Positions 23,810 through 44,560 of a stretch of DNA of 51,845 nt are shown in pieces. The stretch's first letter is position 1. Every line of letters begins with the position of its first letter. The position numbers were made by a program, and so were the translations under genes. This stretch comes from Promethearchaeota archaeon (GTDB taxonomy: Archaea; Asgardarchaeota; Lokiarchaeia; Sigyniarchaeales; SOKP01), in contig JBHLLU010000030.1 in the NCBI GenBank assembly GCA_048938895.1, positions 1 through 51,845 of the forward strand, given 5' to 3'. Below the pieces are notes generated by a model. That model did not search any database. It was not told the origin of the DNA and saw nothing but the letters and a program-made list of their open reading frames with translations.

Positions 23810-24814
23810 CTATTTTTTTTCATTCCAACGAGGATAAACTCCTCTATTCATAAAAACCTTATCAGTTTTTACTAAGATACCTGATTTAGCTTTATAAATC
23901 TGCATAGCACTTTTTAATGAAGTGCCAAATCCAATTAACTCTTTTTTTAAAGTCATTAAAGCAACTAATATGTTAGGTTTTATTCTAGCGTCAATATAGC
24001 ATATACCAGCTGAAGCTAAATCAGCACCATGGCAAATAGCATCGACAGCCGTATCTCGAATATAGATTTTTGGTAGATGGGACACCATTTTTTCCATTGG
24101 AAAAACAATTTCTTTTAGATAGGTTTCATCATTCTCCAATTGATAAATTGTATAAGCATCTTTTAGATCTTGGAGGGTAATAAGCTTATAGTTTTCCTTA
24201 AAATTTCCTACTCTTGTTCTTCGTAATTCTAACATATGTGCTCCTGAACAAAGAGCTTCTCCAATATCAAAACAATATTTCCGAATATAGGTACCTGCTT
24301 CACACCCAATTCTAAATAAAACGTGCTTATTTTTCACTTCAATAATTTGGTTATAATATATCTCTCTTATCCTAAGTCTTCTTACTACTGAGGATTTTAA
24401 AGGAGGTCTCTGATATATTTTACCACTAAATAATTTAAATATTTTTTCAATTCTGGTACGGTTCTCGGGAGAATGTAAATAAATTATGCCAACATATTCC
24501 TTTCCAGCATTCAATAATGATGATAAAGCTCTTGTAGCTTTTCCAAGAGCACAGGGTAAAACACCTGTAACCTTTGGATCTAAAGTACCACCATGTCCTG
24601 CATTCGAAATTCCTAATATTTTACGAACCCATGATACTACCTCATGACTAGTTGGACCACTTGGTTTATCTAAATTAATTACTCCATACTGTAAATGATT
24701 AGCTATATCTCTTTTTTCTGGCTCACATCCATAATTAGGATTACTATTATCTTGTGATTTAACTAATAGCTGCTCAGGTTCATCGGAGGGTAATTTTAAT
24801 TCTATATCTTCCAT
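23810..24814 (-). CDS. cbf5: H/ACA RNA-guided pseudouridine synthase Cbf5
   Basis: LDKPSGPTSHEV, GHGGTLDPKVTG, YQRPP, GTYIRK, PUA domain. Confidence 0.97.
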   Translation of the reverse strand: MEDIELKLPSDEPEQLLVKSQDNSNPNYGCEPEKRDIANHLQYGVINLDKPSGPTSHEVVSWVRKILGISNAGHGGTLDPKVTGVLPCALGKATRALSSLLNAGKEYVGIIYLHSPENRTRIEKIFKLFSGKIYQRPPLKSSVVRRLRIREIYYNQIIEVKNKHVLFRIGCEAGTYIRKYCFDIGEALCSGAHMLELRRTRVGNFKENYKLITLQDLKDAYTIYQLENDETYLKEIVFPMEKMVSHLPKIYIRDTAVDAICHGADLASAGICYIDARIKPNILVALMTLKKELIGFGTSLKSAMQIYKAKSGILVKTDKVFMNRGVYPRWNEKK

Positions 24815-24928: not shown

Positions 24929-25032
24929 CGGGCTATAGGGGAATTGAACCCCTGACCTTCCTTTCTATAAGAGACCATCTAATAAATTTCAGGTTAAAAG
25001 CCTGCCGCGCTACCTGCCTGCGCTAATAGCCC
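24929..25032 (-). tRNA. tRNA-Lys(UUU) with a 30-nt non-canonical intron (24958-24987, about position 44/45)
   Basis: Acceptor GGGCTAT/ATAGCCC+G, D stem GCGC/GCGC, anticodon loop CTTTTAA, T arm AGGGG-TTCAATT-CCCCT. Confidence 0.92.
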
Positions 25033-26250: not shown

Positions 26251-26352
26251 GCCTCTGTGGCTTAGTGGTAGAGCTATTGATTCGTAATCAATTGATCACG
26301 TGATTCAAGCGATCAGATGATTCGGTCGGGGGTTCAATTCCCCCCAGAGGCT
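26251..26352 (+). tRNA. tRNA-Thr(CGU) with a 30-nt non-canonical intron (26292-26321, about position 42/43)
   Basis: Acceptor GCCTCTG/CAGAGGC+T, anticodon arm ATTGA-TTCGTAA-TCAAT, T arm GGGGG-TTCAATT-CCCCC. Confidence 0.92.
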
Positions 26353-38931: not shown

Positions 38932-40422
38932 TTACCCCTTAACAACTCCTACTGGTACAAGTCTTACAACCTTTTCAACAATATCCAGATCATGACTCAC
39001 TTGAACCACTTGATCTATATCTTTGTAGGCTCCGGGACTTTCTTCGGCTAGCACTTTCATAGAGGCACTTTTTACTAAAATACCTTTCTTTCCTAAATCT
39101 TCTTGAATTTTAGTTCCCCAGTATCTTTTGACTGCTTTTGATCTAGACATAACTCTACCCGAACCGTGAGCAGTTGATCCAAAAGATAACTCCATGGCTC
39201 TTGGTTTACCAACGCATAAGTAAGAGGCTGACCCCATAGTTCCAGGAATTAAGGCAGGTTGACCAATGTCTTTATAATCTTGAGGTAAAACTGGGTGATT
39301 TGGAGGAAATGCTCTAGTTGCTCCCTTTCTATGCACATTTAATTTCATCCTTTTTCCATTTACTTCATGCTCTTCTATCTTGAGAATGTTATGGCAAACA
39401 CCATATATCATATGTAAATCCAACTCATCTAAATCTTTCTTAAATGCATTTTGAAAGGATTCTCTTAACCAATGTGTTATTAATTGACGATTTGTAAATC
39501 CAAAATTAGCAGCACAAGCCATTTGTTGTAAATAATTCTGTGCTTCAAGAGTATCCGCAGGTACACAAGCTAGTTCTCTATCAGGCACTTTAATCTTATA
39601 TTTTTTCATTGCTTGTTCTATTTTTCGCAAACTATCTGTACAAACTTGATGTCCTAATGCTCTACTCCCTGTATGAATCATTATAGTGATTTGATTCTTT
39701 TCAGTTATTCCTAATTTCTTAGCAATTGGGGTATTATAAATTTGATCTACTTTCTGAATCTCAAGAAAATGGTTTCCGCTTCCTAATGATCCAAGCTGTT
39801 TAATTGCTCTCTGTTTTGCTTTCTGTGACACCAAACTTGCATCTGCATTCTTCAAACATCCACGTTCTTCTAAGTGTTTAAGATCTTCGTCAATGGCATA
39901 ACCATTTTCTAACGCCCAATTGACCCCATTATTTAGTACTCTATCTAAATCTGAATAGCTTATATTTAGTTTACCTTTAGAACCTAATCCGGAAGGGATA
40001 TTATTAAATATTTTATCTAATAAATTTGGGAGTACATTTTTAAGATCGTTAAGAGATAGATTTGATCTTAATAAACGTACACCACAATTAATATCGTACC
40101 CTACGCCTCCTGGAGATATCATTCCAGTCTCAGCATCTGTCCCAGCAACCCCACCAATACAAAAACCATATCCTTGGTGGGCATCTGCTAATGCGATTGC
40201 ATGTTTTTGAATTCCTGGAAGGCATGCTACATTTGCGATTTGATCTAATGTCCGATCCTGTTTTATTTTTTCTAAGATATAATTATTGGCATAGATCTTG
40301 ACAGGGACTCGCATCTGGAATTTTTCTATATTTCCTTGAATACGCGTCATCAAAGTTTTAGGAGATATCTCATAGATATTCTCCTCAACTTTATTCACAT
40401 TCATACTGCAATTATAAGTCAA
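38932..40422 (-). CDS. rtcB: tRNA-splicing ligase RtcB (start possibly ATG 40404)
   Basis: DAHQGYGFCIG, GVGYDINCG, GSGNHFLE, HTGSR, HRKGATR, HGSGR, EESPGAYK; no intein. Confidence 0.98.
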   Translation of the reverse strand: MTYNCSMNVNKVEENIYEISPKTLMTRIQGNIEKFQMRVPVKIYANNYILEKIKQDRTLDQIANVACLPGIQKHAIALADAHQGYGFCIGGVAGTDAETGMISPGGVGYDINCGVRLLRSNLSLNDLKNVLPNLLDKIFNNIPSGLGSKGKLNISYSDLDRVLNNGVNWALENGYAIDEDLKHLEERGCLKNADASLVSQKAKQRAIKQLGSLGSGNHFLEIQKVDQIYNTPIAKKLGITEKNQITIMIHTGSRALGHQVCTDSLRKIEQAMKKYKIKVPDRELACVPADTLEAQNYLQQMACAANFGFTNRQLITHWLRESFQNAFKKDLDELDLHMIYGVCHNILKIEEHEVNGKRMKLNVHRKGATRAFPPNHPVLPQDYKDIGQPALIPGTMGSASYLCVGKPRAMELSFGSTAHGSGRVMSRSKAVKRYWGTKIQEDLGKKGILVKSASMKVLAEESPGAYKDIDQVVQVSHDLDIVEKVVRLVPVGVVKG

Positions 40423-40963: not shown

Positions 40964-41749
40964 TTATTTGATTTCGACAAAGGAAAGAAGCTCTAACTTA
41001 TCCAAGTTATTCATTATCTTCTGAATTTCTGATTCTGGGCGACCAGATTCTTCAGCAATGTCAGCAATCGTATGAAATCCGTCAGCTAAATGTGCAATCT
41101 CAAATTCTTCTTCATCCAATACTCCCTGTGCAACGACTTGTTTTGGTAAACGTTTACTAGTCCATTCTGGTTTGACGTCCTTCACTTCACGTAAGTCTTC
41201 CTCTGATAAGATTAATCCTTTCTTGGCAATTTGCTTCTGGGATTTAAGGAAATCTTTTTTAAAAATTTTCAAAATGGGAATCTTTAATTGGATCTCGGCA
41301 ACCTTACCACTCTTTAATATCTCATCTATTACACTCTCAAAATCTCGGAAAATCCTTACATCTCCAGACCAACCGTCAAGTTGATCACCAAATTTTCCTA
41401 CAAACTTATCAATTATATCAGTTAACGCTTTATGAGTAATTTTAGCATCATCATTTTTATCAGCGGCAGCAGTACATAAAACACCCTCCTTAAAGACTAA
41501 TAACAGGTAAAAAACCTGCATGTCTTTACTAATAGATAGAATCTATCTATAACCTATAACTTTAAGTTCCCCACTTCCCTTAGAGAACTCAACACTAAAG
41601 TCTTTAAGTGCTGTGAGAAAACCGCTGACTAAATCCTGATTAAATTCAATCCTCCCATACTTTCTGTGGATTAAACAAATACCCGTTCATAACCAATGGA
41701 GAACTCCCGTTGATTTATATTGGTGTATCAAGTAAAAATTATGTAAAAT
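40964..41749 (-). CDS. Longin-domain + winged-helix protein, three exons (41749-41716, 41685-41554, 41523-40964), 241 aa after splicing; ATT start
   Basis: Spliced N-terminus (I/M)LHNFYLIHQYTGICLIHRKYGRIEFNQDLVSGFLTALKDFSVEFSKGSGELKVIDMQVFYL is a longin pattern, in frame with the 185-aa ORF; SD-like GAGGTGA 9 nt before the ATT. Confidence 0.85.
41524..41553 (-). other. Predicted BHB intron 2 of the longin gene (30 nt, contains in-frame TAG)
   Basis: G-TTAT-AG^G-TTATAGATAG-ATT-CTATCTATTA-GTAA-AG^A-C: 4-bp central helix, two 3-nt bulges, 8-bp perfect inner stem. Confidence 0.85.
41686..41715 (-). other. Predicted BHB intron 1 of the longin gene (30 nt, contains in-frame TGA)
   Basis: CC-AATA-TA^A-ATCAA...TTGGT-TATG-AA^C-GG: central helix 3 bp + A.G, inner stem ATCAA/TTGGT, outer pairs CC/GG and ATAC/GTAT. 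Confidence 0.78.
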
Positions 41750-41811
41750 GGGACCTTTTCACCTCTAACCTTTATATTTTAAACATTACAATTAACTATG
41801 ATTCTATTAAA

Positions 41812-41932: not shown

Positions 41933-44560
41933 TCATTTAATTAAATCATAAAGAGACTGTATCTTGAAAGAATTCTTTATTTCCTGTTCTGAGTATTTTT
42001 TACCTAAATCAAGATAATTCATAATCTCAATATCAATATCCCTGACGTCATTAGGTTCCATAGAAAAGAAGTTATCAGAAGCTATAAAATCAACTAAATC
42101 CGAGTCGATATTGACATATAAAGCAATATTCTTTGCCTGTAGTTTCAGTCTAAATTGAATTTGGTTATTTTCTTCTCCTACTATATCCCCGAAAATACTT
42201 GATATCTTTGGATCTTGTAATTTGAAAAATTTTGGAGCTTCAAATAAACGAAAACCTTGATGTACCAAAATTTTGCCATTATCCTTTGAAAATAATTTAT
42301 AAAAGATTATATTATTTTGAAGTGATGATTTGTCTGAATTTATTAGGCTTACATCAACCAAATGAACCATTAATGAAGTGCAAGGTAATAAAATAGATGT
42401 ATTAACTCCATTGGCTTGTATTTCCCCTTCAGAATTCATTATTTTCCAATTTAGTTCAATATCATAAGACTTTTTTAAATCATTTGTAACCCAGAATTCG
42501 ACTATCTCAACATTTTCCCTAACACTCGCAAATAATGGTTGGTAAAATCGCTTTGTAAAATAGTGAAGTGCTTTCCACCTACCATAATAATCTAGTGAGG
42601 CCCAACTTGCAACAGGCCAACAATCATTTAGTTGCCAATAAAGAGATCCCATACAACGGAAATCACTACGATTTTGTCGCCAATATTCAACGCCATATTC
42701 TATCGCTTCTGCTTGAGTAATTTGAGATAAATCCACTTGACGCCTAAATTCTTGCGGAATGGAAAAACGCTTTTCCATATAATCCATAATTTTCTGATTA
42801 CCTGCTAAGTTTTTTTGATGGTTCTTCATAATTGGTGAATTGATATCATACTGATTAGTGGGACAAAATTCTTTAATTGTCTTTAAAGAAGGAAAGGATT
42901 CAAAGCCAAATTCAGACATAAAACGAGAATTGAAGTTTCTATATGTAGAGAAAGGCATATTCCCATGCCAAACTGCCCAGTAATGTGAATCACCTGCATT
43001 AGGATCATTTGATCTCCGTAAAACGAAATTTTCGCTAATAAAACCACTTGATGGTGAACTAGGCCAATATGGTCGAGTAGGATCTAATCTCTTTATCAAC
43101 TCAGGAAGCATTTCTTCAAAGATTTTAGAATAAAAATCAATCAAAAAATGATGTTTTTCTCTTTCATCCTTTTCAATCCCGGAATTTATTAACATCATTT
43201 TCCATAACCATTCTATTTCATTATTCCCACACCATAAAGCGAGACTAGCATGCTTTCGTATTCTTATTATATTTTGAGTAGCTTCTAATTCAACACTTTT
43301 AATAAATTCCTCGTTATAAGGATAAAGAGCACACGCGAATGGAAAATCCTGCCAAACAAGTAATCCTAATTCATCACAGAGGTTATAAAATACCTCATCT
43401 TCATATATCCCTCCGCCCCATACACGAATCATGTTCATATTTGCTTGTTTCGCATAATGTAAATTCATAGAATAAAGCCCTAACTTTTTACCTCTCGGAA
43501 TAAAGCTATCTACGGGAATCCAATTTGCTCCCTTCGCAAAGATTGGGATACCGTTTAATAAAAAATAGAAAGTTTCTCCCCACCTATCCGGTTTTCTAAC
43601 AAGTCGAATCTCACGTAATCCTATCATTTCTGTTACTTTTTCTAACACATCATCTTTTAAGATAGAAACTTCTACTTTGTAGAGATTTGGGGTACCCAGA
43701 TCATGGGTCCACCATAACAGTGGTTCTTTAATATCAAAACTGAGTATTTCCTTTGGTTTACTCAAGGGGATTTCCTTAATGTAAATTTCTTCAGTTGGTG
43801 ATTTTACTTGTGCTCTAATATTATAAGAAGTCCTCTGGATATTTTCATTATTGATCATTAATTCGATTTCAATAAATAACTCTGCAGATTTTACATCAAT
43901 TGTAGAAATTTCAGAAGGGTTACTGATACTCAATGGATCTTTATTATATTTGAGAATTGCATAAGGATAAATTGACTTTATTTTAATTTCATCGAATCCT
44001 ATTAATTCTACAGATTTCCATATTCCGATATCCGGTAGTTTCGGCCCCCAATCCCAACCAAAAGAATACTGCGCTTTTCTCAAATATGGGACTCCTGGAA
44101 TTCCGGCATAACCGGTGTTTAAGTTGATTTTATATTTTTCTATTAATTCTCGACTTTTTACAGTAGGGCTCTTAAAATTGATTATGATTTTATTTTCAGA
44201 TTCCTTAAGTTTAGTTTTCACTTCAAAATCATATCTTACAAACATGTTGTTTACAGAACCTATTCGTTCCCCATTTAACTGAACATCTGCTATGGTATCC
44301 AATCCGTTAAATCGTAAGATTATATATTTGTGCTTTAAAAATTCTGGTTTGAGAGTGAATTCTTTTTCATAAGACCAGTCAGATTCATAAACCCATTTCA
44401 TTTCAAGCTCGTTTTCTCCATAAAAAGGATCAATAATGACATTATTGTTAATTAGAGCTTCAAAAACAGTTCCAGGAACTTGGGCGTTTACCTCAACCGA
44501 TTTTACATAACACTTTAATCCCCAGAACCCATCTAAAGAAATTTTTTCCACTTTCCTCAA
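41933..44560 (-). CDS. Glycoside hydrolase family 2, beta-mannosidase-like
   Basis: [33 protein letters not shown] (acid/base), GDSHYW, FMSEFG (nucleophile). Confidence 0.95.

Follow-up and report, generated by a model that had tools for sequence, protein, structure and literature searches.

In archaea, the closest described parallel for a bulge-helix-bulge (BHB) intron within a protein-coding gene is cbf5 of Crenarchaeota, for whose pre-mRNA intron Watanabe 2002 and Yoshinari 2006 are cited in PMC12397907. The subject here is a gene in a 51,845-nucleotide (nt) stretch of Promethearchaeota archaeon DNA, referred to below as the window (assembly GCA_048938895.1, contig JBHLLU010000030.1, positions 1 to 51,845; genome G000), in which minus-strand positions 41686-41715 very probably constitute such an intron (intron 1), the protein-coding gene around it holding two introns of 30 nt. 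The cbf5 pre-mRNA intron is reported from Aeropyrum and Sulfolobus in PMC2738675, and PMC12397907 (2025) gives cbf5 for its examples of archaeal mRNA BHB introns. The cbf5 intron resembles the present one in being a short BHB intron of a protein gene, gained and lost patchily among relatives, whose removal is attributed to a hetero-oligomeric tRNA-splicing endonuclease. The present case differs in belonging to an Asgard phylum (Promethearchaeota, a phylum of the kingdom Promethearchaeati), in its host, a gene for a predicted longin and winged helix-turn-helix protein, in the two introns per gene, in their uniform length of 30-31 nt, in a genome with five or more host genes, and in that excision is here deduced from the comparison of genes.

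Asgard tRNA genes carry non-canonical BHB introns, according to PMC11291895 and bioRxiv 10.64898/2026.10.13.758758, and the likeness to these introns extends to the lineage, the presumed enzyme, the exonic position of half of the motif, and repeated gain and loss. In contrast to tRNA introns, those described here reside in mRNA, so that removal must precede or compete with translation, and the exon half of the motif consists of codons, with constraint on synonymous sites. Cytoplasmic HAC1/XBP1 splicing in eukaryotes (Ire1 with a tRNA ligase or RTCB) and the 'SOS splicing' of inverted-repeat transposons (PMC12779559) are also spliceosome-independent, structure-guided mRNA excisions with RtcB-type sealing, but they differ in endonuclease, motif and the stress-sensor context, which is absent here, and serve as an analogy only. 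A full-text literature search, with most subscription journals and supplements outside its scope, returned archaeal protein-gene endonuclease introns only for crenarchaeal cbf5 and Asgard introns of this type only in tRNAs, the two papers on Asgard tRNA introns being silent on mRNA introns and the word 'mRNA' occurring 0 times in bioRxiv 10.64898/2026.10.13.758758. The intron at 41686-41715 extends a type of intron already described to another lineage and another host gene, and G000 carries several of them.

Two inserts in one gene and their distribution among orthologues

Intron 1 is 30 nt long, contains an in-frame TGA, and lies 34 nt past an ATT start codon. Its whole motif occupies 41728 to 41679 of the minus strand in exactly the order written in an initial annotation made from the sequence alone: ATAC-A-CC, AATA, TA^A, ATCAA, loop, TTGGT, TATG, AA^C and GG-GTAT. 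The outer helix (ATAC-A-CC/GG-GTAT) is exon sequence on both sides, and the central helix (41721-41718 with 41691-41688) joins exon AATA to TATG in the 3′ part of the intron through three standard pairs plus A.G, as the annotation had it. Two bulges of 3 nt each are located at 41717-41715 (TA^A) and 41687-41685 (AA^C), and the inner hairpin has the arms ATCAA and TTGGT with a 13-nt loop. The annotated reading of the unspliced frame was also borne out, the frame running from ATT (41749) through 20 sense codons to the TGA. Intron 2 (41524-41553, minus, 30 nt) interrupts the same gene with an in-frame TAG, the second in-frame stop, 54 codons past the TGA, after which the frame is open to 40964. 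Its central helix of 4 bp is formed by exon TTAT (41559-41556) and intron GTAA (41529-41526), its bulges are AG^G and AG^A, and its inner hairpin is ATAGATAG/CTATCTAT.

Fit to the BHB motif was scored by a simple pair count with a maximum of 13 (4 central, 3 outer and 6 inner pairs), and cleavage was placed after the second bulge base. Across all positions of G000, a score of at least 10 occurs per register with a probability of 0.72%, and of at least 11 with 0.13%. Under the cleavage rule, ...AATATA (41716) would be joined to CGGGTAT... (41685) at intron 1, and GTTATAG (41554) to ACATGCAG (41523) at intron 2. These cuts coincide with the junctions given by orthologues for both introns, which score 10 of 13 (intron 1) and 11 of 13 (intron 2). 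The orthologue alignment that the annotation had proposed for intron 1 does fix its bounds, and sliding both cuts by 1 nt (-1) yields an identical product, so that the exact cuts would lie in one of two registers 1 nt apart. At intron 2, slides of 0 or -1 are tolerated in G000 and of 0 or +1 in G053; therefore, only the BHB register fits both genomes.

Orthologues were sought with the 185-amino-acid (aa) open reading frame (ORF) downstream of the second stop (40967-41521) as query. The search covered 54 same-genus genomes, of which 49 contained one orthologue each; the loci of all 49 full-length orthologues were taken and their coding sequences (CDS) rebuilt by script. The intron 1 site was empty at its exact bounds in 43 of them, with a junction reading HQ[YH]TGICL, and HQYTGICL, the residues expected for G000 after splicing, is what the intron-free sister genome G002 encodes. 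Retention of the 10 insert codons as sense sequence, which the annotation had named as fatal to its proposal, was thus not found, exactly these 30 nt being absent from the 43 orthologues. The insert is present in six genomes (G000, G021, G052, G054, G061 and G069), at 30 nt in four and at 31 nt in two (G021 and G054). The 31-nt versions shift the frame, and consequently no reading without removal gives the protein. Intron 2 was found in nine genomes (G000, G020, G022, G042, G052, G053, G054, G061 and G069) as 30-nt inserts with a stop, located between VI and DMQ, and is lacking in the other 40. The spliced CDS measured 726 nt in 49/49 orthologues and had a single terminal stop in 48/49, the G059 copy having no stop within the extracted 726 nt; no other frame damage was detected in any of the 49. 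G000 is a metagenome-assembled genome of 174 contigs with an estimated contamination of 7.5%, which would leave room for an assembly or sequencing artefact, but homologous and diverged inserts occupy the same sites in 10 separate assemblies, and these refute that explanation, whose chance we regard as negligible.

When mapped onto a maximum-likelihood tree built from the 49 spliced CDS, intron 1 requires at least four changes and intron 2 at least six. For each intron, the copies can be recognised as relatives of one another, and a single origin of each intron followed by repeated precise loss, spread by recombination, or both, is the likeliest history.

Neither intron is repeated in G000. In blastn-short searches with both introns, no other match longer than 19 nt was obtained, and the match of that length was intron 2's own palindrome on the opposite strand; a mobile repeat of the miniature inverted-repeat transposable element type was rejected as both introns are unique in the genome. 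A self-splicing group I or group II intron was set aside in view of an insert of only 30 nt against a ribozyme core of hundreds of nt, and Rfam at the gathering threshold detected two tRNAs only, and no ribozyme, in the window.

Conservation of the fold and of the exon flanks

The six natural copies of intron 1 (alignment A1) and the nine of intron 2 (alignment A2) were compared with controls in which the 3′ partners were slid by 1-3 columns and with 500 shuffles. In alignment A1, 88.9% of the cells were paired, versus 38-50% in the slid controls; the copies have diverged widely and have kept one fold, the outer helix being paired in 95.2% and the inner helix in 88.3% of cells. Changes on both sides were counted in 10 of 21 pairs, a number reached by one of the 500 shuffles, and the covariation score was reached by none. 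In two of the covarying pairs, both in the central helix, a base of an exon codon is matched with one at the intron's 3′ end: columns 13/43 (CG in three copies, UA in three) and columns 12/44 (AU in four, GC in one, GU in one). Exon AATA goes with intron TATG, AGCA with TGCG or TGTT, and AACA with TGTG. Covariation of this kind, between exon and intron 3′ end, is what marks a BHB central helix. Intron 1 has the BHB motif in a relaxed form with flanking helices on both sides, and in G069 an A-U pair stands in place of A.G, making four pairs. In alignment A2, 84.3% of the cells were paired, versus 31-48% in the slid controls, and the central helix TTAT/[GA]TAA was fully paired (100%) in 9/9 copies; intron 2 copies are more conserved than those of intron 1.

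Only in intron-bearing genes are synonymous sites within the exon halves of the motifs fixed. The flank CACC...CGGGTAT of intron 1 occurs in 6/6 intron-bearing and 1/43 intron-free orthologues, and GTTATAG of intron 2 in 9/9 and 2/40, respectively. These fixed flanks fit selection for pairing.

The covarying pairs also bear on a rival explanation in which the mRNA retains the insert and ribosomes get past it by a programmed hop, readthrough or frameshift. The protein must somehow be produced, given the purifying selection described below, some inserts have the stop near their 5′ end, and a hairpin lies inside the gap, which resembles phage T4 gene 60, where a short, stop-containing hairpin gap is likewise absent from the protein. 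Here, however, the take-off and landing codons do not match (TAT/CAT precedes the gap, and TGA/TAA-type codons precede the resume point), and the gap pairs with the exon in BHB geometry. Gaps of 30, 31 and 47 nt in different genes have nothing but the BHB in common, and covarying pairs between exon and insert 3′ end match substrates of the splicing endonuclease EndA, while a bypass needs none. Bypass is therefore most unlikely, and a BHB intron is preferred.

Host gene and candidate splicing enzymes

The coding layout starts with a Shine-Dalgarno (SD)-like AGAGGTGA (41759-41766, minus) 9 nt upstream of the start, and motifs of the GAGGTG type were also seen upstream of the aligned start in orthologues. 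The apparent ATT start (41747-41749, minus) stands behind this strong SD-like motif; the aligned first codon in the 49 orthologues was TTG (25), ATT (13), ATG (3), ATC (3), GTG (3), ACG (2), ATA (1) or CTG (1). Exon 1 (41716-41749, minus) comprises 34 nt, namely the ATT start, 10 codons and 1 nt, and gives a phase-1 junction; exon 2 (41554-41685, minus) comprises 132 nt and exon 3 (40964-41523, minus) 560 nt including the stop. The spliced CDS of 726 nt encodes 241 aa.

Synonymous sites are near saturation between genomes (proportion of synonymous differences, pS, 0.41-0.81; of nonsynonymous differences, pN, 0.03-0.13), and the ratio of nonsynonymous to synonymous substitution rates (dN/dS) is 0.018-0.072, also where both members of a pair are interrupted by introns (0.044 for G069/G061, 0.038 for G020/G022 and 0.045 for G000/G054). 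The gene is not a pseudogene because its exons are held at low dN/dS with saturated synonymous sites even between intron-bearing copies. A recent pseudogene, created by a 30-nt junk insertion or a TGA nonsense mutation and yielding no full-length protein, would account for the in-frame stops in both inserts, for the 43 of 49 relatives without the intron 1 insert, and for a fold energy not better than that of shuffles. It is nevertheless close to refuted and scarcely credible, since 6 and 9 genomes share related inserts at the two sites at pS 0.67-0.81 and dN/dS 0.02-0.07, helices are maintained by compensatory change, other frame damage affects 0 of the 49 CDS, and no second close copy of the gene was found in G000 that could serve as a spare.

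For the host protein, Pfam returned sub-threshold matches only (HTH_47, TrmB and Longin), and NCBIfam no match above threshold. A structure was modelled with AlphaFold2 on 33 intron-free relatives at moderate confidence (predicted local distance difference test, pLDDT, 73) and has a beta-beta-alpha-beta-beta-alpha N-domain and a helical C-domain. The best matches of Foldseek in the PDB were longin domains (sigma and mu subunits of AP complexes, Sec22b and SRX; E from 1.6e-4), and the protein is predicted to combine a longin-like domain at its N-terminus with a winged helix at its C-terminus. In the model, intron 1 maps to the loop between strands 1 and 2, and intron 2 to a low-confidence loop before strand 3. 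Alternatively, the gene could be split into separate products, with the 185-aa ORF from ATG 41521 functional and the upstream pieces dispensable; a conserved ATG does lie two bases into exon 3, and the ORF is called as such. This is very unlikely, as in every intron-free orthologue the Met is an internal residue (VID-MQVFY), exons 1 and 2 match exon 3 in conservation in intron-bearing genomes and provide strands 1-2 and helix 1 of the longin-like model, and the ATG has no SD-like motif in front of it. Immediately upstream of the host gene lies an 875-aa ORF (41933-44560, minus) with glycoside-hydrolase-like sequence, only short stretches of which align with the syntenic region of G002.

G000 encodes a pair of EndA paralogues (contigs C83 and C123; 202 and 200 aa) that share 30% identity, each possessing both the N-terminal and the catalytic domain and matching PF01974 and PF02778. 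Inspected by eye, paralogue 1 has the Tyr/His/Lys pattern and paralogue 2 is without the His, residues whose roles are presumed. The pair of distinct subunits apparently fits an alpha-beta heterotetramer. This architecture is one of two enzyme types able to cut non-canonical introns, according to PMC5829648, and together with the paralogue pair it suggests that the EndA of G000 may have broad specificity. An RtcB RNA ligase gene (38932-40422, minus; PF01139, E = 6.7e-170) lies 542 nt downstream of the host gene on the same strand, and RtcB is likely the exon-joining enzyme. The adjacency of the two genes was considered as a functional link and dropped; it is probably incidental because the same gene order occurs in G002, which is free of these introns. 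In the proposed mechanism, exon AATA of the pre-mRNA would pair with intron TATG to form the central helix, exon bases from both sides would form the outer helix, and the intron would make its own hairpin, so that the fold presents two 3-nt bulges. The EndA alpha-beta heterotetramer would cut once per bulge, at TA^A and AA^C, and RtcB would then ligate the exons, with the TGA deleted and the frame restored to ...HQY-TGICL....

Further interruptions in the genus and their meaning

The genome of the window was compared with 1,292,366 nt of G002 (~29% of that genome) in a motif-free census by tblastn in both directions, in which every insert with a stop or splitting a match was inspected. Within the 52-kb window, introns 1 and 2 of the host gene were the only coding interruptions. 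Elsewhere in G000, four more inserts restore the orthologous protein when removed in BHB register: in the genes for Elf1 (PF05129; C77:30531-30561 = L204:232-262, plus, 31 nt, score 12), where the first zinc knuckle is split as CPE/CG, and CdhD (C117 near 21017, minus, 30 nt, score 12), in an AIR-synthase-related gene (C101 near 4437, plus, 30 nt, score 13), and in a flavodiiron-like gene (C144 62171-62211, minus, 47 nt, score 10). Three inserts of G002 are without counterpart in G000, located in the genes for thioredoxin just before WCGPC (C1 near 288858, minus, 30 nt, score 10) and PurA inside GDEGKGK (C2 near 178231, minus, 30 nt, score 9, one extra base), and in an LOR/zinc-ribbon gene (C2 near 163720, minus, 30 nt, score 10). 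Among the 10 interruptions defined by homology, 9 score at least 9 and 8 at least 10, versus 0.72% expected per register. Altogether 17 genomes of the genus have the Elf1 intron at one and the same site, with 85.2% of cells paired versus 35-48% in slid controls, and 8 of its 18 pairs are compensatory, a number reached by 0/500 shuffles; the Pro codon's wobble base changes in concert with a base of the intron (AU 10, UA 4, GC 1).

Taken together, these observations suggest that protein genes of this genus probably harbour a whole population of BHB mini-introns, ~30 nt in length (observed range 30-47 nt), gained, inherited and precisely lost by lineage. Simple scaling gives ~20 introns in G000 absent from G002 and ~10 conversely, to an order of magnitude only, and as part of the same picture a rough extrapolation puts the load of each genome at some ten to a few tens. 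The proposed hosts include both eukaryote-like genes (Elf1 and the longin-domain protein) and core metabolism (PurA, CdhD and thioredoxin). A genome-only scan for BHB motifs whose removal would restore an ORF (length 20-60, flanks of at least 40 codons) returned 410 real versus 408-434 slid matches at a score of at least 12 and is uninformative because neighbouring same-strand genes swamp the signal and sliding by 1-3 nt gives equal counts. Census rows at G000 C119:10278, C105:1340, C51:25911, C130:6235 and C113:664 were rejected as gene starts, intergenic, non-coding frames or tRNA, and on the same grounds those at G002 C14 piece 7285, C2 102392, 226263 and 334150, and C1 376271, as well as a split match at G002 C2 89519-89843 (query the minus-strand ORF of G000 contig C47, 12445). 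Rows of low identity were dismissed at C117:44633, C88:70189, C71:2437, C114:14481 and C53:72645 and, in the reverse search, at G002 C1 10163 and C15 7570.

In unrelated host genes, many intron hairpins have loops centred on (A)TTC or a GAATTC-like sequence (TTC, ATT, ATTC, AATTC), for example at 41700-41706 and 41537-41541 of the window and also at L204 and L205; shared origin, enzyme preference or AT-rich chance could each produce such a common sequence. Rfam detected the two window tRNA genes, and ARAGORN no tRNA in the window. Both tRNA-Thr(CGU) (26251-26352, plus) and tRNA-Lys(UUU) (24929-25032, minus) have an insert of ~31 nt that directly follows the anticodon stem instead of lying at position 37/38, in the same size class as the mRNA introns. 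On these tRNA genes, the pair-count scorer rated several registers about equally and did not fix the intron bounds, and the annotation's statement that the A.G imperfection of intron 1 recurs in the tRNA-Thr intron could not be confirmed. The cbf5/TruB_N homologue of the window (24470-24625, minus) is uninterrupted, with a 342-aa open frame and no stop, and adjoins the intron-bearing tRNA-Lys gene.

Several points weigh against BHB introns at this locus and in the genus. That the inserts are excised from mRNA at all is something we infer from sequence comparison. The folding energy of intron 1 is unremarkable (minimum free energy (MFE) -8.5 kcal/mol, z = -0.29, with 69/200 shuffles as good), the MFE fold leaves its central helix unpaired, and the centroid register is off by one base; from the single sequence alone, the motif of intron 1 cannot be told from chance. 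Its central helix has only three standard pairs plus A.G in 5/6 copies. For intron 2, the folding energy is no better than that of shuffles (z = -0.66), the outer helix is weak (66.7% paired; G-C, mismatch, A-U), and covariation is not above shuffles (43/500 reach it; 2/17 pairs compensatory). Sequences within a genus are related, which makes the shuffle controls lenient and overstates significance, and the fixed exon flanks could instead reflect co-transfer of intron plus flanks by recombination. Finally, a stop-bearing 30-nt insert in an SCP2-domain gene (G000 C101 near 22190 = L208, minus; NFFGTTV*GR) shows no BHB in any frame-restoring register tried, and may represent a broken gene or a differently shaped substrate. 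The BHB explanation does not cover all inserts of this type.

Granting a real intron, its removal might be regulated, splicing acting as an on/off switch for the protein. The BHB lies 34 nt from the start codon, where ribosome loading could compete with folding, two introns in one small gene are unusual, and the relaxed central helix with A.G could make cutting inefficient. The annotation had also pointed to ACCAAT/ATTGGT as an alternative pairing that competes with the BHB fold; these are indeed exact complements, but the pairing is perfect in G000 only among the copies of alignment A1. Moreover, close relatives are without intron 1 (43/49) or intron 2 (40/49), the presence of the introns is scattered over the gene tree, with the changes counted above, and similar introns reside in housekeeping genes such as those for PurA and CdhD. 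An occurrence this patchy in closely related genomes speaks against a regulatory role that could not be dispensed with, and we consider a switch unlikely. Most likely, the introns are tolerated heritable insertions, occasionally lost precisely or spread by recombination, and not a required switch.

Introns of this kind are a hidden source of mis-annotation, as such genes are called truncated ORFs or pseudogenes; in the present case, 185 aa are listed instead of 241. They also show that a motif for RNA processing can place constraints on codons. Among archaea, this lineage is the sister of eukaryotes, and its ten intron sites can be tested at once, as they offer concrete junctions for transcriptomes and proteomes. 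An old question of eukaryote origin, namely how introns in mRNA are dealt with by a cell that couples transcription to translation, is thereby made testable in living relatives, including cultured ones if they carry such introns. If the reading is true, the closest archaeal relatives of eukaryotes would routinely splice mRNAs with tRNA machinery, before or in competition with translation and with no nucleus.

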